Part shown: in pieces, positions 5,835 to 38,009 of the stretch
How the letters are laid out: the number at the start of each line of letters is the position of its first letter
How positions within the stretch are numbered: the first letter of the stretch is position 1
From: Bilabrum cf. latius
Taxonomy: Eukaryota
Length of the DNA: 64,000 nt
Reading direction: 5' to 3'
Assembly (NCBI GenBank): GCA_965178125.1
Contig: OZ237765.1
Location: 1 to 64,000 of the forward strand
Made by a program: the position numbers and the translations under genes
The notes under the pieces: model-generated
The model's database searches: none
The model's input: only the letters and a program-made list of their open reading frames with translations
Told to the model about the DNA's origin: nothing

Positions 5835-7706
5835 TCACGACATTTTCTCTTGCCCACTGCTTTTACCCTCTGTGCCACCGCCTGGGCCAACGCTACCATC
5901 GCCCGCCCCGGGAGGCGTTTCCTCCGTTTCTTCGCCAGCATCCATGGCCACAGAGGGCGTCATCGTGTCTCCAGGACCAGGGCCTGGGCCATGTATCCTA
6001 CTTGGGGCAGTGTGCCCACTCATGGTGCTACCTGCGTCGCTAATGGCCCCGGTGCCATCCCCCCGAGATCCGGCAACCGCGCTCCCTGACCTGCTCCGTC
6101 GTGGCCCCGCATCTGCACCCGCCGCTGGCGATGTGCGGATGGACGCGCCCATCGGGCCAATGCAAAACCGGAACAGATCACTCAGAGTAACCATTCCGCA
6201 CGGCTTGCCCTGCTGGTCCACGCCCACCACGCAGTAGCACCGAGTGGCGGTGAAGGTGTCCACCACGCGCCTGAGGCTGTCGGTGGGCCGGCACACGCGG
6301 AGGGCAGTCACGCCCCCGGATGCCGCCACTTGCGCTCGCCTGGTCCGCTTCACGGGGGCGTCCAGCACCGTGAGCCCTGGATCCGTGGCCAGGAAGAGCA
6401 CATCATCCCTGGACCAGAGATCCACCAGCACACGGGAGCTGGGGTCCACCAGGGGGACTGCGGCCAGCCGCCGCTGGGCCACCACCCGGAGCACGTCCAC
6501 CAGGGGCGTCTCCGTCGTGCAATGCACCACTCTATCTGCGCCCCATACGCCCACTCCCGAGTGCCCCACGGGTGTGTCCAGCCCCGCCAGCGCAGTGGTG
6601 GACTTGAACCTCTCCGCGAGGTGCTCCAGCACGGTCCCGTAGGTCAGCAGCCCGAGGGCCATGGTGCGGGAGGGGGGCGGGTACAGCATGCCCTCCCGCG
6701 CACTCATCACACCATGCCGGTGCGCCTCTGCTCCCTCGTGCTCGGCGGCGCCCTCCTGCGCCTCCCCGCTGGATCCACCAGGCCTCGCCCCTCCGGCGCG
6801 CCCCCCCCCGCGCCCCCGGCGGATCTCCCGCTGCCTCGCCAGTCGGCGGGCCAGCCCCACCGTCTCATGCTGCCGCCCCGAGGACGCGCCCAGTCCGCCC
6901 GCACGCGTGTCTGCTAGTGCACTAGATGGCCCGGCCCCGCCCGAGTCCCCAGCTGCCGATGCCGCAGCAGCTGCGAGCTCTCGCCCTGCTGCAGCTGCTA
7001 CCGCCTACACCTCGGCATCTTCGGCGTCTTCCTCCTCCTCTGCCCCAGCCGCTGCATCTGATGGAACAACTGCGACTCTATGGATACTGTTCGAAGCAAG
7101 CAGTCTAACTGCATCAAGCAGCGTCTGCTCAGGCGGTATCTGCACAAGGCCGTGTGGATAGTCCCACACCGGGAGCGGAGACCCATCCGCGGCAGCCTAT
7201 CGCATTCGAACCTCCTCGGCTTTCATTCGCTGGAATTGTTTCCAAGATGCTAACGTGTGGCGATTAAGAGCCTATGCCGCAGTGCTTGGACCACCCGCAG
7301 TGCCCCTCTTGTGGTACTCCAGCAAGATCTACGAAAAATCTGTCACGGTGACCATGCCCGCGAACTCGCCCCTAGCGCTATCCCACAATGGCGCTGCAGT
7401 AACTTCATTCTCAACCAGCGCGTAAAATGCCAGACGTAGGGGCACAGTCACGTCAAAAACAACCACTTTACTGCTTGCTGGCAATGCATCATAGCATGTC
7501 GTGGATGCCAAAAACGACGCGAAAGCTCTTCGAGCTGGAATTAGGGACCTGTCAAGGCTCCTAGTCGATGCATTTGTGGACGACTCTACGCTCGACATGC
7601 TTTGGGACGACACTGAAGCCGCAGATTGGTCGCCTCCTTGGCTTGGCAGCGTAGGCGGTACCACTGAAGGCCGCATGGCTCCATCTGTGGTACCATCTCC
7701 CTACAT
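5835..7706 (-). CDS. CBS-domain protein, AMPK/SNF1 gamma subunit-like (five in-frame TAG)
   Basis: TCYDALPASSKVVVFD..AFYALVENEVTAAPLWDS..FAGMVTVTDF is typical of AMPK gamma. One continuous frame runs to TGA at 5835 if TAG at 7701, 7329, 7272, 7197 and 7005 are sense. Alternative start at 7676. Confidence 0.85.
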
Positions 7707-8694: not shown

Positions 8695-10790
8695 GGGTCG
8701 TGATGGTGGTGGATCTGTGTGGAGGGGGGTGGCAGTCGGACGAGTGTGGGCGCAATGCAGCAACGCAGCGATGCCTGTGGCATGTGCACGTGTGCTGCAC
8801 AGGGCAGGCGTGGATGGGCCGTGTTCGATTGGCAGAGAATGCGATTCAGCGCAGTGCAGTCGATCTGGCGGTCGTGGTGGTGGTGGGTCTGTGTGGAGGG
8901 TGGCGGCAGTCGGACGAGTGTGGGCGCAATGCAGCAACGCAGCGATGCCTGTGGCATGTGCACGTGTGCTGCATAGGGCAGGCATGGATTGGCCGTGTTC
9001 GATTGGCAGAGAATGCGATTCAGCGCAGTGCAGTCGATCTGGCGGTCGTGGTGGTGGTGGGTCTGTGTGGAGGGTGGCGGCAGTCGGACGAGTGTGGGCG
9101 CAATGCAGCAACGCAGCGATACCTGTGGCATGTGCACGTGTGCTGCTGTTATATGTACTCGGACATCAGGATTGAAGCAACGGGGAGCAGAGGTGAGACG
9201 GAAGACGAGGTGGGCGCAGGAGGACAGGAGGTGGAGAAGAAGAGGGGGGCACCAGCACAGGTGACGACAGTGCGGTGTCAACAGGGAGAACACAACGGGA
9301 GGAATGGGGGCTCCAGGTGCAAGGCACGAGGGAGACGCAGGTGGCAACGGACTGCATGGCCAGCAGCACGCAGAAGGCCAACAGGTGGGTGGACAGATGG
9401 GGCGCACGGCAGGTCGGCCAGGACCGGCGCGTGCAAGTTGAAAGGATAGGGCCAAGGTGGCAATGCTGGGAGCAAAGCACACGGTCCCTAGGGCGGGGAA
9501 CAGGAACAGGAAGCCATGTGGCGACGAGGCCAGTCGGGTGCATGGGGAAAGTGGTGTGTACATTCGTAGTGTCAGATGAATACCGCATTCAGGTGGACCG
9601 GTGAAGAACCAGTCGTTCGGGGTGAAGCCCAGTGGGTCCGCGGGACCGGGGGCAGGCGTGGATGGGCCGTGTTCGATTGGCAGAGAATGCGATTCAGCGC
9701 AGTGCAGTCGATCTGGCGGTCGTGGTGGTGGTGGGTCGGTGTGGAGGGTGGCGGCAGTCGGACGAGTGTGGCGCAATGCAGCAACGCAGCGATGCCTGTG
9801 GCATGTGCACGTGTGCTGCACAGGGCAGGCGTGGATGGGCCGTGTTCGATTGGCAGAGAATGCGATTCAGCGCAGTGCAGTCGATCTGGCGGTCGTGGTG
9901 GTGGTGGGTCGGTGTGGAGGGTGGCGGCAGTCGGACGAGTGTGGGCGCAATGCAGCAACGCAGCGATGCCTGTGGCATGTGCACGTGTGCTGCATAGGGC
10001 AGGCGTGGATGGGCCGTGTTCGATTGGCAGAGAATGCGATTCAGCGCAGTGCAGTCGATCTGGCGGTCGTGGTGGTGGTGGGTCGATGTGGAGGGTGGCG
10101 GCAGTCGGACGAGTGTGGCGCAATGCAGCAACGCAGCGATGCCTGTGGCATGTGCACGTGTGCTGCACAGGGCAGGCGTGGATGGGCCGTGTTCGATTGG
10201 CAGAGAATGCGATTCAGCGCAGTGCAGTCGATCTGGCGGTCGTGGTGGTGGTGGGTCTGTGTGGAGGGTGGCGGCAGTCGGACGAGTGTGGGCGCAATGC
10301 AGCAACGCAGCGATGCCTGTGGCATGTGCACGTGTGCTGCATAGGGCAGGCGTGGATGGGCCGTGTTCGATTGGCAGAGAATGCGATTCAGCGCAGTGCA
10401 GTCGATCTGGCGGTCGTGGTGGTGGTGGGTCTGTGTGGAGGGTGGCGGCAGTCGGACGAGTGTGGGCGCAATGCAGCAAAGCAGCGATGCCTGTGGCATG
10501 TGCACGTGTGCTGCACAGGGCAGGCGTGGATGGGCCGTGTTCGATTGGCAGAGAATGCGATTCAGCGCAGTGCAGTCGATCTGGCGGTCGTGGTGGTGGT
10601 GGGTCTGTGTGGAGGGTGGCGGCAGTCGGACGAGTGTGGGCGCAATGCAGCAACGCAGCGATGCCTGTGGCATGTGCACGTGTGCTGCATAGGGCAGGCA
10701 TGGATGGGCCGTGTTCGATTGGCAGAGAATGCGATTCAGCGCAGTGCAGTCGATCTGGCGGTCGTGGTGGTAGTGGGTCTGTGTGGAGGG
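8695..10790. repeat. Satellite array A, 173-174-bp unit, G-rich on + strand, about 9 copies in two blocks
   Basis: Anchor agggcagg at 8801, 8975, 9822, 9996, 10169, 10343, 10517, 10691. Interrupted by non-repeat sequence at ~9148-9650. Confidence 0.95.
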
Positions 10791-11259
10791 TCGCAGCCAG
10801 TGTATGGATTGGACGGAAGCCTCGAAGTGCGTGAGAGCCGTACGGAGTTATCGCGTGAAGTGGAGTAGAGTATCCCGGGAGTTGTGTTCGCTGGAGAGTT
10901 AATGCTGCAAGGCTAGGGATCCGGATCAGATGCTTAGTGTGGCTACATCCCACGGATGTGCGGTGGCTAAGGCTTATAGTCCTATGCTACTATTCAGGTC
11001 AAGAGCAAGCTAAATCAACCCATCTGGATAGTGCAAAGAAGATGCAGAAGATCATCTGAACAAGGTCATGCAGACATAGTGTGGGCTAAAAACCAAGATT
11101 GCATAAAACCACAAGCATAAGTCTACGATTGAAACTCAACAGGACTGCCTGGACCCAAGTTGCAACGAAAATGCAACGTCAAAGCCGGACAACGGGCACC
11201 GACTCGTCAACAAGACAGCCACGAACTTCAGCAGCAAAAAGCAAACGTATTCAACTCAA

Positions 11260-14200
11260 CACACACGACGACAGCCACGGACTACTCGCACAGCTCTCTC
11301 CGGCCGACATCCCGCCCCACCCCACACACCCGCCCTCACCACCACCCCAAACACCCAACTCACAATGCGGCCCCCGACCATATACAAGCTGACCAGCCAA
11401 TGGACATTGTCAATGACACACATGCGCCCTATCACACACGACGACAGCCACGGACTACTCGCACAGCTCTCTCCGGCCGACATCCCGCCCCACCCCACAC
11501 ACCCGCCCTCACCACCACCCCAAACACCCAACTCACAATGCGGCCCCCGACCATATACAAGCTGACCAGCCAATGGACATTGTCAATGACACACATGCGC
11601 CCTATCACACACGACGACAGCCACGGACTACTCGCACAGCTCTCTCCAGCCGACATCCCGCCCCACCCCACACACCCGCCCTCACCACCACCCCAAACAC
11701 CCAACTCACAATGCGGCCCCCGACCATATACAAGCTGACCAGCCAATGGACATCGTCAATGACACACATGCGCCCTATCACACACGACGACAGCCACGGA
11801 CTACTCGCACAGCTCTCTCCGGCCGACATCCCGCCCCACCCCACACACCCGCCCTCACCACCACCCCAAACACCCAACTCACAATGCGGCCCCCGACCAT
11901 ATACAAGCTGACCAGCCAATGGACATTGTCAATGACACACATGCGCCCTATCACACACGACGACAGCCACGGACTACTCGCACAGCTCTCTCCAGCCGAC
12001 ATCCCGCCCCACCCCACACACCCGCCCTCACCACCACCCCAAACACCCAACTCACAATGCGGCCCCCGACCATATACAAGCTGACCAGCCAATGGACATT
12101 GTCAATGACACACATGCGCCCTATCACACACGACGACAGCCACGGACTACTCGCACAGCTCTCTCCGGCCGACATCCCGCCCCACCCCACAAACCCGCCC
12201 TCACCACCACCCCAAACACCCAACTCACAATGCGGCCCCCGACCATATACAAGCTGACCAGCCAATGGACATCGTCAATGACACACATGCGCCCTATCAC
12301 ACACGACGACAGCCACGGACTACTCGCACAGCTCTCTCCGGCCGACATCCCGCCCCACCCCACACACCCGCCCTCACCACCACCCCAAACACCCAACTCA
12401 CAATGCGGCCCCCGACCATATACAAGCTGACCAGCCAATGGACATTGTCAATGACACACATGCGCCCTATCACACACGACGACAGCCACGGACTACTCGC
12501 ACAGCTCTCTCCAGCCGACATCCCGCCCCACCCCACACACCCGCCCTCACCACCACCCCAAACACCCAACTCACAATGCGGCCCCCGACCATATACAAGC
12601 TGACCAGCCAATGGACATTGTCAATGACACACATGCGCCCTATCACACACGACGACAGCCACGGACTACTCGCACAGCTCTCTCCGGCCGACATCCCGCC
12701 CCACCCCACACACCCGCCCTCACCACCACCCCAAACACCCAACTCACAATGCGGCCCCCGACCATATACAAGCTGACCAGCCAATGGACATCGTCAATGA
12801 CACACATGCGCCCTATCACACACGACGATAGCAACGGACTACTCGCACAGCTCTCTCCGGCCGACATCCCGCCCCACCCCACACACCCGCCCTCACCACC
12901 ACCCCAAACACCCAACTCACAATGCGGCCCCCGACCATATACAAGCTGACCAGCCAATGGACATTGTCAATGACACACATGCGCCCTATCACACACGACG
13001 ACAGCCACGGACTACTCGCACAGCTCTCTCCAGCCGACATCCCGCCCCACCCCACACACCCGCCCTCACCACCACCCCAAACACCCAACTCACAATGCGG
13101 CCCCCGACCATATACAAGCTGACCAGCCAATGGACATCGTCAATGACACACATGCGCCCTATCACACACGACGACAGCCACGGACTACTCGCACAGCTCT
13201 CTCCGGCCGACATCCCGCCCCACCCCACACACCCGCCCTCACCACCACCCCAAACACCCAACTCACAATGCGGCCCCCGACCATATACAAGCTGACCAGC
13301 CAATGGACATTGTCAATGACACACATGCGCCCTATCACACACGACGACAGCCACGGACTACTCGCACAGCTCTCTCCAGCCGACATCCCGCCCCACCCCA
13401 CACACCCGCCCTCACCACCACCCCAAACACCCAACTCACAATGCGGCCCCCGACCATATACAAGCTGACCAGCCAATGGACATTGTCAATGACACACATG
13501 CGCCCTATCACACACGACGACAGCCACGGACTACTCGCACAGCTCTCTCCGGCCGACATCCCGCCCCACCCCACAAACCCGCCCTCACCACCACCCCAAA
13601 CACCCAACTCACAATGCGGCCCCCGACCATATACAAGCTGACCAGCCAATGGACATCGTCAATGACACACATGCGCCCTATCACACACGACGATAGCCAC
13701 GGACTACTCGCACAGCTCTCTCCAGCCGACATCCCGCCCCACCCCACACACCCGCCCTCACCACCACCCCAAACACCCAACTCACAATGCGGCCCCCGAC
13801 CATATACAAGCTGACCAGCCAATGGACATCGTCAATGACACACATGCGCCCTATCACACACGACGACAGCCACGGACTACTCGCACAGCTCTCTCCGGCC
13901 GACATCCCGCCCCACCCCACACACCCGCCCTCACCACCACCCCAAACACCCAACTCACAATGCGGCCCCCGACCATATACAAGCTGACCAGCCAATGGAC
14001 ATCGTCAATGACACACATGCGCCCTATCACACACGACGATAGCAACGGACTACTCGCACAGCTCTCTCCAGCCGACATCCCGCCCCACCCCACACACCCG
14101 CCCTCACCACCACCCCAAACACCCAACTCACAATGCGGCCCCCGACCATATACAAGCTGACCAGCCAATGGACATCGTCAATGACACACATGCGCCCTAT

Positions 14201-15244
14201 CACACACGACGACAGCCACGGACTACTCGCACAGCTCTCTCCGGCCGACATCCCGCCCCACCCCACACACCCGCCCTCACCACCACCCCAAACACCCAAC
14301 TCACAATGCGGCCCCCGACCATATACAAGCTGACCAGCCAATGGACATCGTCAATGACACACATGCGCCCTATCACACACGACGATAGCCACGGACTACT
14401 CGCACAGCTCTCTCCGGCCGACATCCCGCCCCACCCCACACACCCGCCCTCACCACCACCCCAAACACCCAACTCACAATGCGGCCCCCGACCATATACA
14501 AGCTGACCAGCCAATGGACATCGTCAATGACACACATGCGCCCTATCACACACGACGACAGCCACGGACTACTCGCACAGCTCTCTCCGGCCGACATCCC
14601 GCCCCACCCCACACACCCGCCCTCACCACCACCCCAAACACCCAACTCACAATGCGGCCCCCGACCATATACAAGCTGACCAGCCAATGGACATTGTCAA
14701 TGACACACATGCGCCCTATCACACACGACGACAGCCACGGACTACTCGCACAGCTCTCTCCGGCCGACATCCCGCCCCACCCCACACACCCGCCCTCACC
14801 ACCACCCCAAACACCCAACTCACAATGCGGCCCCCGACCATATACAAGCTGACCAGCCAATGGACATCGTCAATGACACACATGCGCCCTATCACACACG
14901 ACGATAGCAACGGACTACTCGCACAGCTCTCTCCGGCCGACATCCCGCCCCACCCCACACACCCGCCCTCACCACCACCCCAAACACCCAACTCACAATG
15001 CGGCCCCCGACCATATACAAGCTGACCAGCCAATGGACATTGTCAATGACACACATGCGCCCTATCACACACGACGACAGCCACGGACTACTCGCACAGC
15101 TCTCTCCGGCCGACATCCCGCCCCACCCCACACACCCGCCCTCACCACCACCCCAAACACCCAACTCACAATGCGGCCCCCGACCATATACAAGCTGACC
15201 AGCCAATGGACATCGTCAATGACACACATGCGCCCTATCACACA
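11260..15244. repeat. Satellite array B, 173-bp unit, C/A-rich on + strand, about 23 near-identical copies
   Basis: Unit cacacacgacgacagccacggactactcg...gcgccctat repeats with exact 173-bp period, also visible as the 173-bp spacing of identical ORFs in the track. Only a few variable sites. Confidence 0.98.
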
Positions 15245-17169: not shown

Positions 17170-18703
17170 TCACACTCCGACCCTTCGCCGCTTGACCTGG
17201 GCCTCGCGTGCCGCATCTGCGCGCCCTCGCCCCTTGCGTCGGGCCCCCGTGCCCCTCCCCGCTGCTGCCCTGCGCTCAAGCAGCGCCTGCAGTGGCACGT
17301 CCTCGTCCAGACTGGGGGAAATAGCGGCTCGGTGATCACGGGCAGCACGACCATGTGCACTCTCGACCCCACCCCTACCCCCAGCCCAGGGCAGCCTTGA
17401 CAGCAGCGCGTCTGCGAGCACCGCGTCGACATGGCTGCCACGAACCGGGCTTGCCTGCACTCCACCGAGGCACAGCCGAGCCTCTTTGCCTGGCCCTTTG
17501 GACTCTGCATCCTCGTCATCCTCAGATGAGCTGGTGCTGACGCTGCTGTCTGAGCTAGACACGCGGCTTTGTTTCGCCTGCTGCCGCTGCTTTGCTCGCC
17601 CTCGGCCCCGCCGATTTCTCAGCTGCACGCGCAGCTCCGACAGGGAGCCCACGGCGCTGGAATAACCGCAAGCCGAGCTCGTGTCTGATTCTGACTCAGA
17701 TTCCGGTTCTGAGCCACTCTCGTGACCGGGGGCTGCTTTCATCTGCGCGAGCACAGCCCGGGACACATGCACCGCACTGCAACGGCTCCACGTCGCTGCA
17801 CCAGCTCCCTGCGCCTCCGCACCATCGCGCGGCCGCTTGCCCCTCCGTGCCGGACCTCCACCGAGCCAGCCGTGCCGCCGCTGCATTGACCCGACGCCCA
17901 ACGCCCGTAGGGAACAGCCAGCGCGCAGCTTGCTGGCCAGCGAGCGCTATGTTCGGGCGTCCGTTCGCGTCGCTGCCCTGGCCTCGGAGCTGTGCAGGGC
18001 AGCGGTGGCAGCCGTGTAGTTGCTGCTGCTTGGACCGGCTGCGGCCTGGCTGCCCCTGCGCCTGTCCACTACTCTATGCAGCGGGAGCTCAGCCTCACAG
18101 GTGGGGGCACTTTGCTCTGCGCTGTGTGCCGCAGTTGTTCCCACCGCTCTGGATGACTGGCCCCCGCTCGATGCCCGCCTCCCCTGCTTGCCTCGCGCCA
18201 TGCCGTCCACCTAACTTCGGTGGAACGACACGCCGGAAGCAGCCGAGCTTAAGTCGACCCGCACCAGCTGCGGGTCGCATGCAGGCGCAGGCAGGGCCGG
18301 CATCGTGCCCTCATGATACCGGAATCCGCCCCTCTGCAGCACCCCCACCACCTGCTTGTACTTGGCAAAGGCCCTCCGGAGGCGCTGCTGCTCCGCGCCC
18401 CTTGCCACGATAGCCACGCACCTGCCCACGCCCTTGCGCCCCGTGCGCCCCATTCGCTGGATGGCCCGGATGGGAGACCCCGAAGCATCGTACATGACGA
18501 TGAGCTCCACCTCCCCGATGTCCAGACCCTCCTCCCCGATGGACGTGGCCACCAGGGTGTTGAACCGACCGGTCTTGAAGTCGCGGACCACCTGTGCCTG
18601 CTCCTTCTGCGACTGGCCTTTGGTGCTGGTGCTGGCACTGCTGCTCACTGGCTGCAGGGCGTGACTGCCTGCAGCACCCGCCGCAGAGGAAGAGGCAGAT
18701 GAG

Positions 18704-18740
<37 letters not shown>

Positions 18741-20292
18741 GTCTCGCACTCCCGGGACCAGTCTGCGTGCCCGACTACCCGATGAACGGCGCGGCTCTAA
18801 CGAGTGCCTGCCCCCCTTTGCCCGCACCGGCACTCGCTCCACTGGCACTACCCCCACCAGCACTCCCCCCACCGGCAGCCCCTGGCGCCTGCACGGCCAT
18901 GTCTGGCATCCCCTGCATCTGCCGGAGCACCTCGTGCACGGATGCTCTCGTGCTCGTGAATATGATGCACCGGCTGCTGCGGCCCTGCCTGGCTGCCTCC
19001 TAGAAGTGCCTCCGCACCACAGTCTGCAGCACAGTCAGCTTGGGGTGCAGCACGTGCCGCCCGGAAGCGTGGAGCGCCTCGGTGGCCTGCCACAGCGCCT
19101 ACCACGCATGGCTCCGAACCATCTCACGCCGACTCAGGCTGCCCCCCGAGTCTCTCCTGAAGCTCACCAGCGCGTCTCGGAAGGACCCTGTCCCGTGCAC
19201 TTCCAGCTCGCGGCGGGCGGGCAGCAGCGCCATTAGCAGCCCGAAGTCGCCCCGCACCTGCCCTGGGACCTCCACGGTCGGGGGCCGCGGGCCAGTCTGC
19301 TTCATGCCGGCGGCGGCTGCCAGTTTCTGTCCCGCCTGGGCTGCGTACGAGCTGAGCACCTGGAAGGAGAGCCTGCCCGGATCCTTGAATGGGATGAGCT
19401 TGAGGCCGTGCAGGCGCTGGATGCAAGGGCGCATGGCTACCGTGAGGAGGGACTGCAGGCGGCTGATCGCGGGGGGCAGGTCGATGACCAGCTGCTCCAC
19501 CTGTTTGTCGTGCACGTGCGCCCGCACGTCGGCGTCCTGCTCTGTCCTGGCCTCGACGTGCTGCACCCTCAGCTTGCCCAGCACCTCCTGCACCTTGGCG
19601 CGGTCGTTCCCAGGGGTGGCGCTCAGGGCGACCACGCGGAAGTGGCTCTTGGCCCGCCGTTGCCATGGCTGCAAGCTCAAGTGGGGATCTGCCTGCGGTG
19701 GCCTCGGGGGCGCCGCCGCTGCCCCTCCTGTGGCCCCTGCTGTGGCAACTCCGAGTTTCGCCGCTTGCTACGCCTCCAGTCGCTCGATTACCGTCGTGTA
19801 CGCGTACTGCCCGGTAGCCCGGTGCGCTTCATCAACCACCACAAGAACGATTCGTTGCACCGGCACGATTCCGCGGCCAAGATCATTCGAGAAACTCTAA
19901 GGAGTGCAAAAAATAACTTGCTTGTCTTGCCACGCCTTTCTGCGTTTTTCGACGCTTAATGTGCTTCCAGCAAGTAGGGCCGTGTCCTTAACGTCCATTG
20001 ACACAATTCGGTAGCAAGCTTGCACCTGTTGCGTGACTAATGGGCGAGTCGGGGCCATAAACACAACAGCACCAGTTGGAAACCACCGCAAAAAGTTATG
20101 CATGACGCAGCTAGCAATAAACGTCTTGCCAAGACCGGTTGGAAGGGCCACCAGAGTGTTCCTCAGCAAGCATGCCCGCGCGATTACCCTCTGATACTCG
20201 CGTTCTGCGTATCCAGGGCTGACCGGGAGCTCCCAGCTTCCGCAAGTTGTCATAGCGAGCGGTGGGAACCGCAATGCATTCGGTCCAGACAT
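17170..20292 (-). CDS. FANCM: FANCM/Mph1/Hef-family DEAH helicase (seven in-frame TAG)
   Basis: [33 protein letters not shown][TAG], [24 protein letters not shown][TAG][25 protein letters not shown] in one frame of 1041 codons ending TGA. TAG at 19897, 19768, 19099, 19000, 18775, 18211, 17947. Confidence 0.93.
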
Positions 20293-20483: not shown

Positions 20484-23400
20484 ATGTCTCGTGTGCAAAA
20501 TGGTAAATTAGAAAAGAACAAGCAAGCATGCGACTGGTGCCGGAAGGCTAGGCGAAAGTAAGCAAAGATTCGGTATTTACATCGACAGTCAGACGAGCAA
20601 ACTCCCATGCCACCACCAAGCCCTTCTCGAGTCCCACGTCCGCAGATGTGAAGGAGGAATACCGTGCAAGGAGTGCTCCAAACGATCATAGATGTGCACG
20701 TTTTTGATCCCAGTTAAGAAACGCGGGCCGAAGAAGGTATGGCGGTACAACTTACGAACTCGCTTCCACGGCTTGGTCGACGGTACATGCGGTACACTGC
20801 TAATGCTTCGAGTATCTGCCTCAACATTCTCGCTCGTAGGGGTTCAAGAAAGGTCAGCAGACGGATCAGCCCTAGCAACCTGCGGATGCATCAGCTCGAG
20901 ATGCTGTGACGGCGCTCGCAGCCTTGAGGCAGAATCCTGTAGACCCGGTTGGTTCCGGTCCGGCTGGCACTCTGCTTCAAGGTCAAGCAGCGATGAATGG
21001 AGCAACAGGAATAATGCACTCGCAGCCAACATCTCGACCTAGCATCGGCAGGTTTCCAGTCGGACCAGCTGCAAATGTAGAGCGGACGGGTGCGGGGAAT
21101 CCCCTGCAGACTGCTGTGACCGCCATCGCGGGGCCCACAGCCGGGACCAGTGAGACAAAGTAGCTGCCACACGGCTGGGAGACATCGCATCAAGCAAACT
21201 CAGGCCTGCAGCTGGCTCGATTCAACGAGCAGGATATGCGCACGGCACCAATGCACGGGGCGTACGCCCACGCCAACCTGATGCAGTTGCAGCAGCAGTC
21301 GTAGCAGCAGTACGTCCACGGAATGCAGGCACCACCGCAGTCGCCACATCAATTTGCAAGACACAATTATGCGCTCACCAGCGGTGCAGGCACCCCGGCC
21401 TCCGCCTCGTTCCCCGCCTCCTCCTCCTCCAGCCCTATGGGCGCCCTGGACATGCTGGCGGCCAGCACAGTGGAGCAGCAGGCCAGGGCCTCCCTCGCGG
21501 CGGCACTGAGCGGCGCGCGGGCCGAGGCAGCCGTGCACTCGAGGCGGGCAGACGCGGCGGCACGGCGGGCCCTCGAGTCTGAGGGGCAGCTGGCAGGGCT
21601 TCGGCGGCAGGTTTCCCTCCTGCAGCTGCAGCTGAGGGAGGCGGCCCGCAGCGGGGGCTTTCGCGGCGATAGTGGGGGTTCGGCTGTGGGACAAACCGCT
21701 GGGCAAGATGCAGTGGGGGGCAGCGCGTCCAGCGGGGGGCGCTCTCCGCTGTCTGCCCCCGCTGGAAATCTCCAGCCCCCGCCTCTGGTCGATGCCTTCG
21801 CTGGCCTCGTGCCGCCCCTCGCTCTAGACACGCGGCAGCAGGCTCTCCTGGACGCGTACTTCAGGGGACCGCACTCGCTGCATGCGCTGGTGGACGAGTA
21901 TGCGCTTCGCAGGACACTGGAGCTCGCGCAGTACGAGACGATAGCGGACAGGCGCGGCCTGCAGATCCTGCTTGATGGTCCGGTGCCCTTGCCTGCCGCG
22001 CCAAAGGGAACTGGCTCGAGTCAGACGTCGTACGATGGTGAACGTCAGAGTAACGGGTACGGAATAGAGCGCTTGACAGAGCCGGGCGAGGACGCTACGC
22101 CGCTGGGTCGCAAGAGAGCGAGGGGGTCAGTGGAAGGATCCTCTGGTGATCGTGATCGTGATCGTGGGCCTTGGGGACCACCTTCCAAGCGGCCCAGATC
22201 AGACTCTCCACTGAGTGACAGTCCGCTACCGCTGGGACTCGCCGTAGAGGCAGCCGCGAGGGGCATGCTTCGGTCGCGCCTGCACAGGGGGGCTGCAGCA
22301 CGCGCCCTCACATTCGCGTGCATGGCCACAGCTGCTGATCTGCTGGCCAGGGCGCGGGGCATTGGGGTGTCCTCACTGGCATCCCAGCGGGAGTTGGCTG
22401 GGCTCATGAGACTGGGGCTGCTGTACCTGCGGGTGTGTGAGGCGGCGCCCTCCCCAGAGAGCAGAGTAGCTTCCATCCTGCTCGGCGTGCTGCTGGGAAG
22501 GGTCTGCTCAGATCGACAGGGGCTGCTGGCTCGGTTGCATGCCGCGGCTGTGTCAAGGGGTTCAGGCGAAAAGGCAGACCCCGGGATAGCCGCAGCATTG
22601 GTGTATCATGATCAGGCGAGTGCGCCGGTCAGTCTAGATGCAGATTGGGCGCCTGGACGTGGTGTCTCAGGCTGGTCCTCCTATGTCGATGGCTTGCAGC
22701 ATACGTCGCCGTCCAATGATGATCCCCGTAGGAGTGATGGCAGGAATGCGGCATGGAGTGCAATGGACATGGCCCGCTCGCTCGGAGAGTCCACTGCATG
22801 GATGAGGCACAGCCTAGCACAGCACTCGGCCTCGCATGACAGCAGCAAGGCGTCCATCGCGACACTCGGTGAGGGTGCCCCAGCCTCGGCATGGACTGAG
22901 TCCTTCGCAGACCGGCACGGGCGGGGCTGGCCTGCAGCTGCAGTGCGACTCCTGGATGCAGCTATCGCCCGACTGAGAGAAGCTGAGTTGGCCGCTCGAT
23001 CTGCCCCGAGTCGCACAGGACACTCCTCTTCATCGGCGCCATCTGCCTCGTCTTCATCTTCGTCTGCCGCTGCTTCAGAAGTATTGCCTCTCTCCAGCAA
23101 CCCCCTGCACCTCCCCAGCATGGCCATATTGGAGGGAGCGAGAGCTACGCTGCTGGTCCGAAGGGAGGAGGCGCGGGCAGGCGGGCAGGTGGGGGAGCAT
23201 GGGGGCTCTGACGGCCGGAGGCTGGCAGCGGAAGCAGCGGAGAGGTGCGTCTTGGAGCTGCAGCTGCTGGGAGGAGGAGCTGCGCTCGGGGCAGAGGCGA
23301 GTGCGGCCGGGGCCGGGATGCAGTCGCCGGTGGTGTGGTCCGAGGAGTGCTAGCTGTGCGCGCGGGCTGCAGAGCAGGCGCTGCGGTTTGTGCTAGGGAT

Positions 23401-23641
23401 GGGCAGTAATATCGCGCAGGCGGGGGAGGCGGGGGAGGCGGGGGAGGCGGGGGAGGCAGGGGAGGTGTAGTCACAGATCGCAGACGAGGAAGGGGAAGAG
23501 GACGGTGAAGGTGATAGCCCGGGGGGTATGAGTTTCGACTCCCTCATCCCGAGCCAGGCCGCAGGCAACGCCAGCGACCGTGAGCGGTGGAGGAGCATGC
23601 TGGACACAGCCATACGGTTGCAGGTGCAGGGATTTTACTGA
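20484..23641 (+). CDS. Zn(II)2Cys6 binuclear-cluster transcription factor (six in-frame TAG)
   Basis: ACDWCRKARRK|CEGGIPCKECSKRS[TAG 20689]MCTFLIPVKKRGPKK|G after introns 20558-20645 and ~20737-20839. Further TAG at ~20873, 21161, 21302, 23351 and ~23468. Ends TGA at 23639-23641. Confidence 0.85.
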
Positions 23642-23834
23642 GAGCCGAGAGTTGCATACTTGGGTGCTAGGCGTGGCATAGGCTATTCAAACAGTGCGTG
23701 GCGTGCTCTGGTCAAGAGCGATGAACCTCGTAGAACCTTCGGTACTCACACGAGTGCTCACATCAGCAGCGTTGAATCTTGGAGTCGAGGGATCAATGGG
23801 GCGGTAAATCAAGGAAGCAGTACAGTAATTTAGT

Positions 23835-26255
23835 ATGGAGCTATCGTCTGGCACAGGTGCAGTGAGCGCGGTCGAGGGAGACGGAATTAGCAGCGCAATT
23901 TTTGACCTGATCTGGCGCGCTAACCCGAATGGAAGCCAATTTAAGGGTGCACTACTTCCAGAAACGATAGTGCTGAGATATGGTATTGTTGTCGGGTGGT
24001 ACGTAGGAAACGACCCAATCCGAAGAATGCCGCGCTCCCGATGTCGGCTAGAATCTGTCCAGCGCCGGATACTCAAAGCCATTGCAAGGGGTGAATGGAG
24101 GGGTACCACTGCGATGGTGCTCATGACCCCGCTCGGTCTGGAGCAACCATACGATTCAATGTCGTGGTACAGTGGGGCTAGCCTGCATGCTGCTGTCGCG
24201 AAGGATCGTCGTGGCAGTGCCAGTGGGGCCTTGCCGAAGCTGCTTAATTCGGGAAGTCGGGCCAGCACTGATGAGCCTGCTTTGCTGATGGCACCATCAG
24301 ATGCAACCAGCCATGAAGAACCGGAGGATCGGTTTTCCATTGCCCGTGCCGCTCATCGCGCAAAGTAGCAGAGGACGCCCATCTTGCTTGGCCTCAGCCC
24401 TAGCCCTGGGGAGCGGATTCCTCGCGTCCTGCACATCCGCACTCAAGGGCAATTCTGGGAGTTCATGTCGTCGCTCCCAACCGGTAGCCACTGCATTCTG
24501 CAGGCAAAGCCGGGCATAGGTTCTCTGTCCTCCTCGGAGAGATGGTGGAGGCTCCTGTTGCAGGGCGGTGCAGCCGTGGCCCTCGAGTGCATGCCTCCGG
24601 ATGACGAGCATGACTCGGAGGCGACAGTGGATGGCCGGGAGAGTGGGGCAGCAGGCGGCAAGGGCACCAGTGCCAGTACCAGGGCCAAACAGAACTTCCC
24701 TCTCAGGCTGGAGCACGGTGTCAGGGGGAGGCAGGAGGAGCGGCTGTGGGTCACCGAGAGGCTGGTGCGAGCTGCTGTGAGTCTTGCCGAGCACGTCAGC
24801 GCGGTGAGTCGGGGGTCCATCCGGATTGCTAGACTGGTGGCTGACTTTGCCGTGGACCCAGATAGACTGGAAGACGTCTGGCTGTTGCGAGTGCTCAGTG
24901 TGCGACAGCGACATCCGCACTCCTGGGTGCCGCAGATGCGGGCGAAGAGTCTGCTGGCACCAGCCGTGCCGCAGGTTGGAGCAGGTTTGCATGCCTCCCA
25001 AGTGCGGGCATCAACCGCCCCAACTGACAAATCATGCAGCTCTGGGGGCCCCCCTGGAGCTGACCGACGAGCCTCGCACACCCATGCACGCGGCTCCCTG
25101 CCTGCGCCCGACCTAGACGGGTGCCCTCCTAGCAGACCGCAGACAGCACCGGCCCCGGTGGGCGCGCAACAAGCTGCCAGGGCACTGAGAGCAGCGAGGC
25201 GATCTGTTCGAATGCGCGAGCTTCCGAAGATACCGGTCAGGGAGATAGACCCCGAGGCAGCCGAGAGGGGCGGCGGGAAGGAGGAGTCGGTGGATGGGGA
25301 TGGATATGCATCTTCAGGCATGTTCGGGTCCTAGGGGCAGGCAAGGGCGGGCAAGCTGCTGGGACAGTATCCCTGGCTGGAGGTGATCGGCCCCAGGGGT
25401 GGTGGCGTGCGCGTCGACGGGGATAGAGAGAGCAAGAAGGAGAGCGAGGGTGCGAGAGAGGGGCAGCCCTAGCTGCGAACATGCATAGCAACCAGAACAA
25501 ACGAGGTCGGCAGTGAGGGAGATGGCAGAAAAAGGACACAGGGTATCCTTTCTCTGCACAAGTTCATGCTGGCTTAGAAGATGCAGTCCTTAGTGGCCGC
25601 GTCTGTGCAAAGGCCTATTGTCAGGAGAGCCATCTTGGCTCGGGTGCTGGCAGATGGTAAGAGCACGAGAAGCGGCAGGACTAATAGGACCAGATGTGGT
25701 AGGCAAGTGAGGACCCGAGAGCAAGGGAGGGGCATCTACACATGCCACCAGTAGCCACAGGCAAGCCATGAAAGCACCAATGCGGTCTAGTATGCGAGCC
25801 GGCCGAGTACATGCCCACCCAGTGCTGGAAGAGCCTCGGCAGGAGAGTCACGGACGGGCACTGACGGTGTGGCACTCTAGATCCGTGGTGCCACTGGTGT
25901 CGGTCGTCCATCGCCGCAAGAGTACTGCCAGTGGGGCATCCAGCTGGCCCTCGGAGGCAAATTTTTCGCAGGATCAGGTCGATACAATGCTGGAACAGCT
26001 CGGAGGTCCAGCCGCCCCTCGACTGCTGGACCAGGCACTGCCGCTGGGGCGCTCTTCTGGGGGCGTGGTACTACTGGCCTGCGGGCTCGCGGGGCGGACG
26101 CAGCCATGCGAGGGATGCATAGCAGGGCAGTATCCGGTGAGACCGTGGTAAAGAGCAACCTATTCTTAGGTCGCCCGGTACGTCTGGGTGTGGGGCAAGG
26201 CAATGCGAAGCCCGGTAGAGGCAGCCGTTGTACAGGCTCCGAGGAGTCCTGGTGA
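23835..26255 (+). CDS. Hypothetical protein (several in-frame TAG)
   Basis: Track ORFs 23835-24368 and 24384-25334 share one frame separated by TAG. The frame stays free of TAA/TGA until TGA at 26253. The 3' part is uncertain (possible intron near 25657). Confidence 0.55.
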
Positions 26256-26331
26256 CGATTGATGAGGCCAGGACGATGAGGCTAGCAGCGGGCTGGCATC
26301 AACACCTTGTATCGTACATCACTTAAGACCA

Positions 26332-28036
26332 ATGCGTTCCATCTTGTTGCTGTGTTTATTCTGTGCATCTGCTGGACTCGTTACCGGATAGCAGCTCGTA
26401 AATGTGTCCCTGCATGGCACCACCGTTCCAGTTAGCTAGCCGATCAGCCCAAACTTCGTCGGGCTCAGCATTGAGGTCCCGTCTGCGGTAGAAATGATCG
26501 GTAGGCATTCGCAGGAGGGACCAAGACAGTCACTTTTGAACCTATTGGAGAATTTTGCACAATTTACGCCATCAGCAGAAGAACTGGGAACCATTCGAGT
26601 TGGCGGGAACTCGGCTGATGAGTCTGTCTTCAACCCAAGTGGAGATCTTCCAATAGGGAAAGACTATAGCATCACATGGGATGACATTTACTCGTACAGG
26701 GCATTCTCGGAGCTGTCGAATAGACGTGTATCCTTCGTGCTCGGTCTCAACTTCCAACGAGCATCCAACGCGTCATGGGCATTAGGGGAGGTACAGGCCG
26801 TCCAGCAAGCTGTCGGTTGGGCAGCGCTTGGCCCAAATTCAGCCATTGAGTGAGGTAGCTCGTTTTGAACAGGGTCCTTGGGCCGCCGTTGCACCGCAAG
26901 CATCACAGTTCTGATAGATCGAGAAGTGCAACTGCAACAGGTACTCGAACAGGGCCCTCACTGAGTGGCACACTTACACTTTTCGCAGGATCGGCAATGA
27001 GTGCGACATATTCAATGGGAATGGCATCCGGAACTCCAGCTACACCTATTCGCAGTACGCCAGCGAGTTCAAGACGTACGCTTCCACCATCCAGGGCGTA
27101 GGCCTTCCCCCGGGCAAAATCCAGGGAGCCACGTTCTGCTGCGAGCACGCCGACTTCGACAATGGGTTTGCCACTGATTACGTGACCCGCTTCAAGTCCG
27201 TGCTGGGCACCAATTCGTACCACCGGTACCCCACGAACCACTGCGGCAGCTCGTCCACCTCCCTCGCAGCCCTGCTCGCCCCCCGGTCCAGCGAGGGACA
27301 GGCCGAGTACCTTTCTCGCTTCTCCATCGCTTCCAGGGCGTAGGGTACCCCCTTCGTCATCGGGGAGAGCAACAGCGTGGCGTGTGGGGGCCAGGATGGC
27401 GTCTCGAATGTGATGGGCACCTCGCTGTGGGCCGTGGACTATCTGCTGTCACTGGCACGGATCAACGTGACTGCCATCAACTTCCACGGGGGACCCAAAG
27501 GAAGGTACCAGCCCATCGGATACAATAGCACGGGGGCAGGCACACCCCCTGACGTGCGGCCCCTGTACTACGGGGCCCTCCTCTTCAGCGAGGCCGTTGC
27601 CAACCGCTCCCAGCTGCTCAACCTCACGATGCAGCATACGGACAACGCACAGGTGCGCACCTGGATGGCGAGGGATGGAGACACGGGAGGCCTGCGTCTA
27701 GTGGTCGTGCACAAGGACCCAAATGCGACCGAGCCGGCCAACGTTCGCTTCGATCTCGGGGCGGGGGCCCAGGCCGGCGATGCCAGCACGCCCTGCTCCG
27801 ACGGGCAGCTGGTTCGGCTGCAGTCGGCCGGCGGCGTGCTGTCCACGTATGGGCTCAGCATCGCAGGGCAGACGTTCGACGGATCTCAGGACGGACGGGC
27901 AGTCGGGCAGCGAGTCACCGAGCCCGTGCACTGCAATGCGGTGCAATCCGGCAGCGAGGGTGCATCCTCCTGGGAATTCACCGTGCAGCCAGGGACCATC
28001 GCTCTGCTTCACCTGCCTCTGCCGACGAGTCGCTGA
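26332..28036 (+). CDS. Secreted glycoside hydrolase family 79 (beta-glucuronidase/heparanase-like; three in-frame TAG)
   Basis: Signal MRSILLLCLFCASAGLVTG, then FVGLSIE, IRVGGNSAD, EIGNECD (across intron 26850-26988), PFVIGESNSVACGG..GVSN, LWAVDY, NFHGG, RPLYYG. TAG at 26389, 26437, 27341. Ends TGA. Confidence 0.9.
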
Positions 28037-28191
28037 TGGCACGGGGCCTATTAAGGCCTAGACGGTGTCTTATGTTGCCTATGGATCGCAAAACCATCCT
28101 GCCTTTGCTTCAGATAGACCCCCCTCACGACCGACTCTGCAGTGCCAGCCCGCGCACGATCTCATCATGCTATCCAACCCAGCCTCTCATC

Positions 28192-31100
28192 TCACTCCCT
28201 GCCCCCCGCATCTGTATCTTCGCTGCTCAACTCCGAATCTACTTCTGGCTCTTCAACCCCTCCTCCTCCCCCTGCACCGGCCCGCATCACCTCTTGCACG
28301 TGTTCCCTCAGCTCAGCGGTCACCCCGCACCCGGGCGCGCTCGCCATGGCCTGCAGCAGCTGCCGCGCTCCCTCCTCGTCCCCTGCCCTGGCCAGCGCGA
28401 CCACCACGGCGGCAGACACGCCCCGCAGCATGGTCGCGGCGCCAGGCTGGCCCAGTCCTGGCAGCAGCGTCGCGGCTGCGAGCCGGGGCCGCTGCGCCTG
28501 CAGGCACGCTCGCGCAAATGCGGTGGCAAGCCGGGGGGCCTCCGCCAGCACGGCGCGCCTGGGGTCTCCCCCTTGCCCTTGACCTTGGGTGTCGCGCAGC
28601 TGCTGCACCAGGTGCGCAGCCCCCCGCAGCGCCGCCTCTGCCACTGTCAGCGTCTCATCGGGCCGGCCCCCGGCCCTGCTGCTGCGCGTGGCAGCTTCAG
28701 CGGCTGCGGCCAGCGCTGCCAGCAGATGCGGCATACGCCTCTGCAGGGCTGCAGCGTCCCTAGCTCTCCCCTGCGCCGACAACTCAGGTACTCCCTGGGA
28801 GAGCGCGCTCCAGGCCAGTCCGGGCTGTGCTGCGAGGGCGGCTGCCTCGCATGCCATCTGCACCACCTCAGCCGGCTGTCCCTGCAACGGACCCGGGTCA
28901 CTGACCCGCGCAGAGTCGTCCTGCTCTGCGTCCGAACCGGCGTCATCAGGCAGAGGAGCCTGCTCCCACAGGTAGGTACCCAGCGCCAGGGCAGCAGCCG
29001 CTGGGGCTGGCGATGAGGCCACCTCCAGTGGGAGGGGCAGCTCGGAGGGATCCAGCAGGACCAGGGCATCGGGTGAGGCTCCGAAGGAAGCAGCCAGCTG
29101 GATCCCAGAGCCATCTCTAGAAGGAAGAGGCTGCAGCACCAACCACCGGATCAGGGACATGGACAAGTCTTCCATCCCTTCATCGATGTCTTCCTCGACA
29201 TCCACATCGCCCTTCTCCAGACCGCTGCCCTCCACGTCAGCACCGATTTCCCCATCTCCGCCTGCCGCCCCCAGGGGCCTGGTGGCTCCCGCAGGCACAA
29301 GCCCGACCCCCATGTCCCCCAGGCCGTCCACCCATGCCTCCCAATCATCGCCCATGCTCTCCTCACCTCTTGCAGGCTCCTCTGCATTGGTTCCATCTTC
29401 GCGACTCAGGTCAGGCTCCATTCCCATGGATCGCAGCCCCTGTAGAGCCTCTTCGAGGGTCCGTGCCCCTACCAGCGACCACGACGGCGACCCGATAGCG
29501 GCAGGCAGCGGACCGCATGTCGCGTGACCCACCCACTCGCTGGCCCAGTGGCGAGACATATCTGCATCAGGCACCGCAATGAGGGCCCCTGCAGCACCCG
29601 CGTCTGTCTCGCCGTCGCTGGCCCCCACCACAGTCTCCCCGTCCACGGCTGTTGCGCCTGGCCACGACAGCCCGTGCGCCCACCCCCCTCCCTCTCCCTG
29701 CGCCTCAGCGTCCCCCGGGTACACCGGCACGGCTCGGGGAGTGGGTTCCCCGTCCAGGCCCACAGCGGAGGCCTCCAACGCAGTGCGCTCCGCATGCCCC
29801 CGCGCAGTTGCCACCGCGTGCAGAGAGTCGCCGACATCTCTGCCAGGACTGCCGCCCAGCCCGCCCCGCTGCCTCTCGCGCTCCCCCCATGCCGCGGCGA
29901 GGGCTGCCGTGGCCGTCTCGGGGTGCTCTGGGGCGCAAGCGGCGGGTCGAGCGAGGCCCACCATGGCTGCCGCGATGCCTCCCGCCGCCGCCTGCTCCGA
30001 TCCTCGCGGTCGCACACTGGCCACCAGCTGGGCCACGGCGGCGCGGATGTCTCCCGGGCTGTACTCGAGGGGTAGGCCGGGCACGGGAGCGTGCTACCGG
30101 TGTGACGAGTGCGCTTCTTGCAGGAGGCGCAGTAGCCCCACAGCGCTACCCTCCATGGCGACCCCCTTGAGGAGGAAGGAGGCCAGGGCCCGCGGGGGCA
30201 CAGTTCTGGGTTGCATGCGCGGGGGCAGGCCCCACGTGTCCCACCACTGCGGCAGGGCTGTGCGGGTGGAGTCGCGGGCCGCGGTGGAGCCCATGAGGTG
30301 CTGTCTAGCGGCGGCCGCGTCGGGAGGCGGCTGTACCACCTCAGTCAAGGGTGCACCGCATGCAAGTGCAGCCGCGGCATGCCCCAGCACAGGGTCCACG
30401 TCAGCCGCCCCGTGGGCCAGCACCCCGGCAGCCACCCCCGCGGGGGCCAGGATGCGGGCCCGCTGGTCCCTATCCCAGAGGAGGCCCCTCCTGTTGGCCT
30501 GCTGCAGCATCGCAATGGCTGCCATGGCCACGTGCATCCCCTCTCTGCTGCGGGAGGACAGACTGGCCACCAGCAGCCGGATCGAGATGTGCCCATCCCC
30601 CAGCAGCTGAGGCCGGTCGGTGCGACCTCGAGCCGGCTATGAATTTGTGCCCTGCTCCGTGAGCTCCTCGATGGCCTCCATAGTCTGCATCAAGAGCGCA
30701 GTAGCACCGCTCAAGTCACCCTGCAGCAGCGCAGTGCGTGCCAGCTCACGGTGCACGGGCATCGACTCTGTCGTCGCGTCGGTTTCAGAAGAAATGCGCG
30801 CATTCCCATGACTAGGCCCAGATACATCCAATTCCTGGATTTTGAGCTGAATCTCCTGAGCTACGTCCGGATCTCGAATTTCTAGAGCGCTTTGGTACAG
30901 CCGCCTAAGGGCGTACAACTTAAACTGCTTGTCCTATTTTGGCAGCTGGCCACTCTAGCTATCAGAACCCCCTGACAACTCCTCGATTACACTCCTTCCG
31001 ATGGTACGATACAATTGAATAGCAACATCGTGCCGTTTCAGCAGCGCGTATGCCGAGCAGAGCACATACACCGCATCTGCGTTCGGCTGTTCGTACGATG

Positions 31101-31350
31101 CCTCTCCGTGCACCTGGGCCAACTGCTCCAGTATTTTATTGATTGGAGTAGGGATGTTCCCACGCTCGCTCGTCTTGCTGATTCGTTGCTTCGACACTCT
31201 CAAAAGGGCCTAGAACTTTGCCCGAGAATCATTAGACTACAAACGATGTCCGTGGTGGCAGTGCTTGAATAAGTTGGACACTGCAGACACTATACGAAGA
31301 GCCTGCATCGAAGGAAGGTGGATTCGAGCTCTCTTAGCGCCTCTTAACAT
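28192..31350 (-). CDS. Hypothetical Ala-rich helical protein, possibly organelle-targeted (six in-frame TAG)
   Basis: Track ORFs 30955-31203, 30637-30918, 30094-30570 and 28192-30084 are all one frame separated only by TAG. ATG at 31350 with basic N-terminus MLRGAKRARIHL. Ends TGA. Confidence 0.65.
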
Positions 31351-31446
31351 GGTCGAATCAACCGCAATGGACCGACGACAACGCGAAATGGTTCCGGTTC
31401 TTCCGGCTTCAAGTTGACACCTCGTGCGTATGAGTCGTAGTGGGCA

Positions 31447-34400: not shown

Positions 34401-34461
34401 ACATGGTACCTTCCAATGAGCCCGATGGGGTGCTCATCCAGCTGGCAGATGCCTTTGACAT
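31447..34461 (-). CDS. Hypothetical coiled-coil/low-complexity protein
   Basis: 964-codon open frame with an E/R/Q-rich helical N-terminal part. Reading through TAG at 31567 and 31561 extends it to TGA at 31447. Confidence 0.65.
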
Positions 34462-34751
34462 GTTGCTCGAGCGACGGCAATCTAGGCCACCCCAGAATGA
34501 AGCTCTTCAATAGTTGAATATTTCTATAGGCAAATATGCGAGTGTTGCTTGACCGGACCACTTCTTAATTTGCACCTACAGCGGAGTAATAGTAAAGGCT
34601 GGTCACGCGCTCGACTCCTCACCCGCCGGCCTGAAAGGTTCGCTGCTGTTTGACGAAGGTTCGGTTTTTCCAAGCTTCAGTGTCTGAAAGAATCAGAAAC
34701 CGACCTGCCCCAGTGCGGTCGGTGCAATTTGATACAGAAAAATCATCCACA

Positions 34752-37311: not shown

Positions 37312-37505
37312 ACCTGTTCGGCGGTTCGTAGAAATGCGCGTGCAGATATGGAAGTCTGCGCGTGGATTTGTGGCAATTAGATGCCAATCTACTCGTTTCG
37401 TGGCCGCGCGAAATGCAGGGATCCGGAGGAGTGCGAACTGCAACTTGCGCGCCGCACACTGGAAACACCGAAGACTGCCGATTGCGTGTTGGCGCTGTGC
37501 CTCAG

Positions 37506-38009
37506 ATGAGCCAAGCCGATGGCTTGGGCAAGGATGGTGCATTACGATGGATGTATGAGGGGAACTCTGGCCACACTGCAGAAGACGTACTAACAGGTAA
37601 AGTACGATTGGATGCGACAGACGTGCGGAAATCAGTTGGTCTCCAGAAAGATAACGAAAAGGAGCTGTACTCTTCAAGTTCTTCCAGCTTCATTGGCTCT
37701 TCCATGCTAGGTGCTCGAGCCACAACGCTGGATATCCCACGGCGAGGACAGGGTGCCGGTTAGTCTGCGGAAACCGCCGCAGAAGGCAGCAACGATGCTA
37801 GAGCAGTGGAACAATTGAGAGAATAGATCCGATAGCGCGTGCGGGCGGCCAAGGAGCGAGCTATGGCCGGCGAAGCATCGGTTGGTGGCGAAGGGAGCTC
37901 TGCAAGGGACGCCGTTCGACCAGACATGTAGGACGAGGAGATTCGAGCTGTGCTGCAAGGAGTAGACAGAAAAAATCTAGATGAGTTAGTCTATCGATTA
38001 TTGAGGTAA
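37506..38009 (+). CDS. Small hypothetical protein with CWC25-like motif (four in-frame TAG)
   Basis: MSQADGLGKDGALRWMYEGNSGHTAEDVLTGK...VEQLRE[TAG]IR[TAG]RVRAAKE...LVYRLLR-TAA, 167 aa if TAG is sense. Confidence 0.5.

Follow-up and report, generated by a model that had tools for sequence, protein, structure and literature searches.

We report that in the first 64,000 nucleotides of contig OZ237765.1 (positions 1-64,000, hereafter the window, in which all coordinates are given), TAG is in all probability read as glutamine (Gln) throughout nuclear genes, with TGA and TAA still acting as stops; we put the probability of this reading at about 0.92. The gene on which the finding centers codes for a helicase of the FANCM/Mph1/Hef family on the minus strand, and when its seven in-frame TAG codons are taken as ordinary Gln codons, the product would be an intact protein of 1040 residues. 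TAG codons fall on columns that hold Gln in the orthologues, TAG exchanges with CAG and CAA between this DNA and that of a relative, and third-position GC drops after TGA and TAA only; the code therefore appears to belong to the type in which UAG alone is changed to Gln, named "genetic code 15" in the abstract of PMC9523058.

The helicase frame contains 1040 sense positions, among them seven TAG codons (132, 175, 398, 431, 506, 694 and 782) and no TAA, its sole TGA being the terminator. Each of the remaining five frames of this stretch carries between 8 and 25 TAA and TGA codons, and a frame free of TAA and TGA over 1040 codons appeared in 0 of 20,000 mononucleotide shuffles. A preliminary description of this DNA had noted two minus-strand peptides interrupted by TAG, VIFCTP-TAG-SFSNDL (TAG at 19897-19899) and APFIG-TAG-SG (TAG at 18775-18777), and both are indeed present, reading ...QVIFCTP-TAG-SFSNDLG... 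and ...RAAPFIG-TAG-SGTQ..., respectively. It had further stated that a product made under the standard code would stop before the DEAH box, which is correct, since TAG codon 132 precedes the DEAH codons 154-157. The features of the gene are the following:

17170-20292, minus strand: coding frame of a FANCM/Mph1/Hef-family superfamily 2 (SF2) helicase, from ATG at 20290-20292 to TGA at 17170-17172; 1040 amino acids with TAG read as Gln (P0001)
20122-20136, minus strand: Walker A motif (motif I) G-L-G-K-T, codons 53-57
19897-19899, minus strand: TAG codon 132, in T-P-[TAG]-S-F-S-N-D-L, lying opposite the TPQ glutamine of FANCM, Hef and RIG-I in alignments
19822-19833, minus strand: DEAH box (motif II), codons 154-157, downstream of the first TAG
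19768-19770, minus strand: TAG codon 175, on the margin of RecA domain 1; orthologue column uninformative
19099-19101, minus strand: TAG codon 398, in the inserted helical domain; Q commonest in the orthologue column, weakly
19000-19002, minus strand: TAG codon 431, after a conserved H-F; orthologue column uninformative
18775-18777, minus strand: TAG codon 506, in P-F-I-G-[TAG]-S-G where RecA domain 2 begins, followed by a poly-Ser insert; F[IV]G[x] motif, CAG in the related contig L001
18436-18459, minus strand: motif VI QRMGRTGR, codons 612-619, aligned to FANCM and Hef
18211-18213, minus strand: TAG codon 694, in S-F-H-R-S-[TAG]-V-D-G; covered by an orthologue column, Q in the relative P0005, TAG kept in L001
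17947-17949, minus strand: TAG codon 782, within a C-terminal tail of low conservation; P0005 alone aligns (E), and L001 has GGC in a poorly aligned stretch

The predicted protein matches the Pfam domains DEAD, ResIII and Helicase_C. Its best PDB relatives in HMMER searches were human FANCM (9el5_A, 4.4e-87) and Pyrococcus Hef (1wp9_A, 5.6e-59), with the RIG-I-like helicases far behind (best 1.8e-21), and by these matches the gene is a member of the FANCM/Mph1/Hef family, closer to FANCM and Hef than to the RIG-I-like/Dicer helicases. With that family it shares the SF2 core (GLGKT, DEAH, SAT and QRxGRTGR), the TPQ..NDL and FxGQ signatures, and a helical domain inserted between the RecA lobes; motif III (SAT) lies at codon 224, and motifs I, II, III and VI are all intact. 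The protein differs from the rest of the family in that its core holds low-complexity inserts (poly-Ser, Gly/Ala), and from FANCM and Hef in giving no hit to a C-terminal ERCC4-like nuclease/helix-hairpin-helix module. The C-terminal 400 residues yielded no ERCC4-type nuclease domain, and the Pfam search at E<=0.001 returned helicase domains only; as no Pfam family was found beyond these, we file the protein as a putative helicase-only, Mph1-like member rather than a full-length FANCM. The shorter fungal Mph1-type proteins likewise have no ERCC4-type nuclease domain.

Orthologue columns at the TAG codons

We used the helicase to search 1.84 billion representative sequences with HMMER, which gave 1459 matches at E<=1e-30, and took the best 150 of these for a column-by-column analysis. 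The query carried X at every TAG, so that it could not itself bias the columns. At codon 132, the position following T-P, the residue was Q in 140 of 149 aligned orthologues, the others having H (7), N (1) and E (1). The FIG-TAG site at codon 506 had no direct HMMER alignment because low-complexity inserts interrupt the core there (stretches of Gly/Ala/Ser and of poly-Ser between FIG[TAG]SG and [10 protein letters not shown]); in each orthologue we therefore sought the pattern F/L-x-G-x no more than 45 residues ahead of the conserved S/T-Q-K-x-Q. Among the 140 orthologues with the motif, the column contained Q in 135, H in 2, and T, N and K in one each; in the other 9 of 149 the FxG motif was missing within the 45 residues searched, mostly as a result of long inserts.

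A third column, that of codon 694, holds Q in 20 of 39 sequences. Codon 398 lies in a more variable column in which Q is the commonest residue, weakly so (Q 27, R 21 and K 21 of 138), and at codon 782 a single close relative could be aligned. By comparison, of the 581 columns that make up the helicase alignment, Q ranks first in only 25. Log-odds summed over six TAG columns came to +16.7 bits for Q, as against -4.6 for H and -5.9 for K, with E, L and Y each below -10 bits and Ser, like Leu, at -10 bits or lower.

These results support the preliminary description, which had placed the two TAG codons on the conserved Gln of TPQ and of F[IV]GQ and had argued that such columns point to Gln and not to Leu, Tyr or Glu. 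Aligned with TAG as X, the orthologues show a Gln consensus at both diagnostic columns, the summed log-odds favor Gln over the other three residues, and codon 694 adds a third column; codons 175, 431 and 782 are unclear.

TAG, TGA and TAA in the window and in close relatives

With TAG taken as a sense codon, the window resolves into long, compactly arranged open reading frames (ORFs), from which we picked 17 long, non-overlapping ones with 13,046 codons between them. These contain 85 TAG, 491 CAG and 104 CAA codons, TAG thus making up 12.5% of the three, and they end at TGA in 13 cases and at TAA in 4. Third-position GC stays level across the in-frame TAG codons (0.67 on the upstream side, 0.70 downstream; n = 67) but drops at TGA from 0.72 to 0.51 (n = 13) and at TAA from 0.69 to 0.44 (n = 4). 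None of the homology-supported genes of the window was found to be split at TAA. TGA is shown to terminate, and TAA probably does so as well.

In addition to the helicase, three conserved genes of the window carry in-frame TAG codons, bringing the number in homology-supported ORFs to 15 (FANCM 7, AMPK-gamma 5, S10 2, GH3 1):

5835-7706, minus strand: AMPK-gamma/SNF4-like CBS-domain gene, ending at TGA (Pfam CBS; PDB AMPK gamma-1, 2.3e-32); in-frame TAGs at 7701-7703, 7329-7331, 7272-7274, 7197-7199 and 7005-7007
35785-37689, minus strand: serine carboxypeptidase S10 gene, ending at TGA (Pfam Peptidase_S10, 2.2e-70); in-frame TAGs at 37009-37011 and 36991-36993
49905-52109, plus strand: main exon of a GH3 beta-xylosidase-like gene, ending at TGA (Pfam Glyco_hydro_3_C, Glyco_hydro_3 and Fn3-like); in-frame TAG at 50727-50729

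The S10 match reaches profile position 419 of 420 at its TGA, and the alignment of the GH3 protein to PDB entry 7vc6_A (3.7e-94) runs through the TAG. In the AMPK-gamma and S10 genes, too, homology continues across the TAG codons.

A metagenome contig (L001, 55% GC) carries a related copy of the helicase, about 78% identical to the window copy in the conserved core, which has in-frame TAG codons of its own and no TAA; the C-terminus reads ...G-V-TGA in both. Comparing the window and L001 codon by codon, we obtained 13 aligned pairs with TAG on one or both sides, and in 6 of these TAG was paired with CAG or CAA, and in none with GAG or GAA. The TAG of these six pairs lies on the window side at FANCM 506 and at AMPK-gamma 162, 181 and 270 (in the latter gene the TAGs at 7329, 7272 and 7005 face CAA, CAG and CAG, respectively), and on the L001 side at FANCM 850 and AMPK-gamma 195. 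One further pair, FANCM codon 694, is TAG on both sides, and in the remaining six TAG faces ATG, AGC, GGC (two pairs), TCC or a gap, most of them in low-complexity sequence where the alignment is unreliable. This comparison, which is independent of the deep columns, gives the same answer, Gln.

Database protein fragments from other relatives point in the same direction. All eight fragment ends that we examined fall immediately before a window CAA or CAG (5), TAG (2) or GAG (1); the fragments were evidently called under a standard-type code, their ends lying as would be expected if the genes had been cut at TAG. Where such relatives can be read across a window TAG, Q is found at FANCM codon 694 in P0005 (85% identical) and at S10 codon 102 in P0187, an S10 fragment 98% identical to the window copy. 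The relatives thus span divergence levels of about 98%, 85% and 78% protein identity, and one of them keeps TAG at FANCM 694.

Some further observations concern the structure and composition of the window genes. When the GH3 protein is aligned with the xylosidase 7vc6, about 44 in-frame residues are skipped (window 50445-50580, approximately ORF residues 181-224) as 7vc6 passes from residue 259 to 261, a segment that looks like a short in-frame intron without stops, and more N-terminal GH3-like sequence lies in a separate ORF at 49282-49992. Ankyrin-repeat matches spread over window 40872-46566 on the plus strand, in the ORFs 41384-41875, 42027-42527 and 45970-46566, suggest a multi-exon ankyrin gene; as the matches fall in three ORFs, the genome is therefore not intron-free. 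A small minus-strand ORF at 54051-54359 matches DPM3, subunit 3 of dolichol-phosphate mannosyltransferase (Pfam 2.5e-07), and an ELMO-domain ORF gave no PDB relative. Very long ORFs of 800-1480 amino acids, rich in Ala, Gly, Ser and Gln and with 2-12 in-frame TAG codons each, occupy window 20804-34506 and 52352-62688; they matched no Pfam family at E<=1e-5 and may be lineage-specific proteins.

In several ORFs the TAG codons appear in pairs spaced i, i+2 or in tighter clusters, namely 46803-48608 (plus strand), 52352-53959 (plus), 31447-34506 (minus), 55464-58088 (plus) and 58246-62688 (minus); examples, in ORF codons, are 410, 412, 414 and 415; 395 and 397; 980 and 982; 857 and 859; and 477 and 479. 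A similar arrangement, F-TAG-R-TAG-K, occurs in L001 at 3353-3361. Most of the clustered TAG codons sit in Gln-rich or coiled-coil-like stretches.

Alternative readings of the in-frame TAG codons

A number of observations weigh against reading TAG as Gln with TGA and TAA as stops. Two helicase columns do not favor Gln and are uninformative, that of codon 431 (L 22, E 20 and Q 17 of 141) and that of codon 175 (21 aligned, A commonest with 7). In the other conserved genes, AMPK-gamma TAG162 is aligned to N in human gamma-1, the single GH3 TAG is aligned to D, and the S10 columns are uninformative, with A in 14 of 77 at column 102, and T in 46 and Q in 8 of 113 at column 108. Glutamate stands at FANCM TAG 782 (17947-17949) in P0005 and at S10 TAG 108 (36991-36993) in P0187, and one of the relatives' fragments ends before a window GAG. 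The assignment of TAA as a stop is based on four ORF ends and on composition. No tRNA gene was found in the window or in L001, and the window contains no eRF1 gene and gave no match to any Rfam family. Finally, we rejected ORF length as evidence: the number of ORFs of at least 600 amino acids rises from 3 to 15 with TAG as sense and equally to 15 with TGA as sense (TAA alone as sense takes it from 3 to 5).

Among the alternatives, the one that survives best, and which we still consider improbable, is a context-dependent code in which TAG would be Gln within genes yet a stop at the end of some, as in the ambiguous stop/sense codes of the ciliate and Blastocrithidia types. Our ORFs were defined by reading through TAG, and a gene that truly ended at TAG would simply look longer in such a set. 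No gene of the window needed TAG as a stop, however. Each of the four genes with homology support has its TGA at the point where proteins of its family terminate (at profile position 419/420 in S10, and in FANCM at the end common to L001), and the 17 ORFs end at TGA or TAA, with third-position GC falling after both.

A code in which TAG stands for glutamate, or for either Gln or Glu by ambiguous decoding, is very unlikely. Such a code would accommodate the two E residues in P0005 and P0187, the fragment that ends before GAG, and the second rank of E at FANCM column 431 (20 of 141). On the other hand, E occurs once among 149 sequences at TPQ and in none of 140 at FxGQ, its summed log-odds lie below -10 bits where those of Q reach +16.7, and L001 pairs TAG six times with CAG or CAA and never with GAG or GAA; with TAG as Glu, one would have to explain away both the invariant TPQ and FxGQ columns and all six CAG/CAA pairs. 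If TAG is Gln, a TAG/GAG difference is a one-base, conservative change, and we read the Glu at the two TAG sites as such Gln/Glu replacements at poorly conserved positions.

We attach an equally small weight to a standard code combined with a change in the mRNA before translation, either U-to-C editing of TAG to CAG or the removal of TAG codons by short introns. Editing to CAG would also yield Gln and so fits every column result, and none of the sequencing runs matching this stretch is recorded as RNA. The intron version, which the preliminary description had raised as a possible objection, fails for TAG132: the HMMER alignments to FANCM, Hef and RIG-I are gapless through this codon, and an intron removing it would therefore delete conserved residues. 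The same holds for TAG398 and TAG431, through which the FANCM/Hef alignments are also gapless. Eighty-five such sites would be needed in 17 ORFs. At homologous Gln positions, relatives either retain TAG or have acquired it. A weak hint comes from contigs of run X6, whose status as RNA is a guess: they are identical to and colinear with the window over five of the seven TAG codons, with T at these positions and no joints. Of the runs compared with this stretch (X5, X6, X8 and X9), X5 likewise gives identical, colinear contigs without joints at the TAG codons, and X9 stems from a diverged relative.

That the helicase is a decaying pseudogene or a product of assembly errors has next to no likelihood, even though it is a subtelomeric gene beside satellite arrays and pseudogenes are common in subtelomeric regions: its seven interruptions are TAG without exception, TAA, TGA and frameshifts being absent from all 1040 codons, a pattern that no shuffle matched, all helicase motifs are intact, the TAG-only pattern recurs in the three other conserved window genes and in the relative's helicase copy, and the independent runs X5 (probably DNA) and X6 carry the identical sequence.

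If TAG is Gln, as we favor, decoding would call for a tRNA-Gln with the anticodon CUA, which would read UAG and not UAA and would let UAG change alone, and for an eRF1 that would no longer recognize UAG; both steps are modeled on other lineages in which UAG is Gln.

Affiliation of the source and comparison with known codes

The window begins at a chromosome end and has a GC content of 60%. Its first feature is the telomere:

1-1453, no strand assigned: telomere repeat (CCCTAA), 242 copies; the window start is the chromosome end

Next to the telomere, at 1455-1789, comes a G-rich subtelomeric repeat of 53 bp, present in 6.3 copies. Satellite arrays lie between the helicase and AMPK-gamma genes, with 174-bp units at 8696-9146 and 9650-10791 and 23 copies of a 173-bp unit at 11260-15244. 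AMPK-gamma is 9.4 kb downstream of the helicase in the window and about 1.5 kb downstream in L001 (1484-2800), with the same order and orientation. As the two genes are far closer in L001, the arrays look like a lineage-specific subtelomeric expansion.

To place the source, a FastTree phylogeny of the helicase core was computed from 489 columns, rows with less than 60% occupancy being dropped. The window sequence groups with P0002, P0003, P0004 and P0008 (support 0.95), and then with P0070, within a clade of 18 tips. Of 26 matches looked up by cluster, 9 carry organism names, which comprise Cafeteria (P0002), Chrysophaeum (P0070), Epithemia (P0019), five oomycete clusters and Sorochytrium. The named sequences of the enclosing clades are all stramenopiles, and Sorochytrium, a blastocladiomycete fungus, lies elsewhere in the tree. 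This single-gene tree suggests that the source is likely a stramenopile near the bicosoecids; the S10 homologue search gave no taxonomic signal, its best unrelated matches being at most 39% identical. The nearest named helicase homologues are full-length under the standard code, and the code change therefore appears confined to this lineage and its close relatives.

Changes of the nuclear code are rare, and those in which UAG is changed without UAA are rarer still. Cases of UAG read as Gln with UAA and UGA as stops that are named in passages of PMC11687900 include the fornicate Iotanema spirale, the ciliate Protocruzia tuzeti and some phyllopharyngean ciliates. The window resembles these code 15 lineages in that TAG alone is reassigned, and to Gln, with TGA, and probably TAA, behaving as terminators; its host looks different, with 60% GC, a long chromosome ending in (CCCTAA)n, and a helicase that falls among stramenopiles next to Cafeteria. 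The same passages list codes in which UAR (both UAA and UAG) is Gln, in many ciliates, ulvophycean green algae, Hexamita, Streblomastix and Amoeboaphelidium (PMC11687900). Those codes agree with the present one in assigning TAG to Gln, but the homology-supported genes of the window contain no in-frame TAA, and 4 of the 17 ORFs end at TAA. Other changes of UAG alone recorded there are UAG as Leu in an uncultured rhizarian and some ciliates, and UAG as Ser in Scotinosphaera (PMC11687900); these share with the window the uncoupling of UAG from UAA, but Leu and Ser are rejected here by the columns.

The code itself is thus already known, and it is the stramenopile host that would be new. A search of the full-text literature, with subscription papers and supplements lying outside it, found no nuclear UAG reassignment in a stramenopile; as the genome is public, the change may have been described before. 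We tentatively propose, at somewhat less than even odds, that the window represents an independent and previously undescribed reassignment of UAG to Gln in a GC-rich stramenopile lineage near the bicosoecids, common to relatives at no fewer than three levels of divergence.

If this proposal is true, it would place a clade-wide code change in a group with no nuclear code variant on record, and an uncommon stop-codon reassignment in a high-GC genome. A stramenopile source would thereby add to the list of code changes a new branch and an unusual base composition (60% GC, with TTAGGG-type telomeres). Each independent case of this kind tests ideas on how stop codons are captured, such as a tRNA(CUA) that does not read UAA and changes in eRF1. 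The finding matters in practice, too. Gene calling under the standard code shreds the genes of this genome, and the database fragments of its relatives end at TAG/Gln sites; annotation and metagenome binning of the clade therefore need a translation table in which TAG is Gln.

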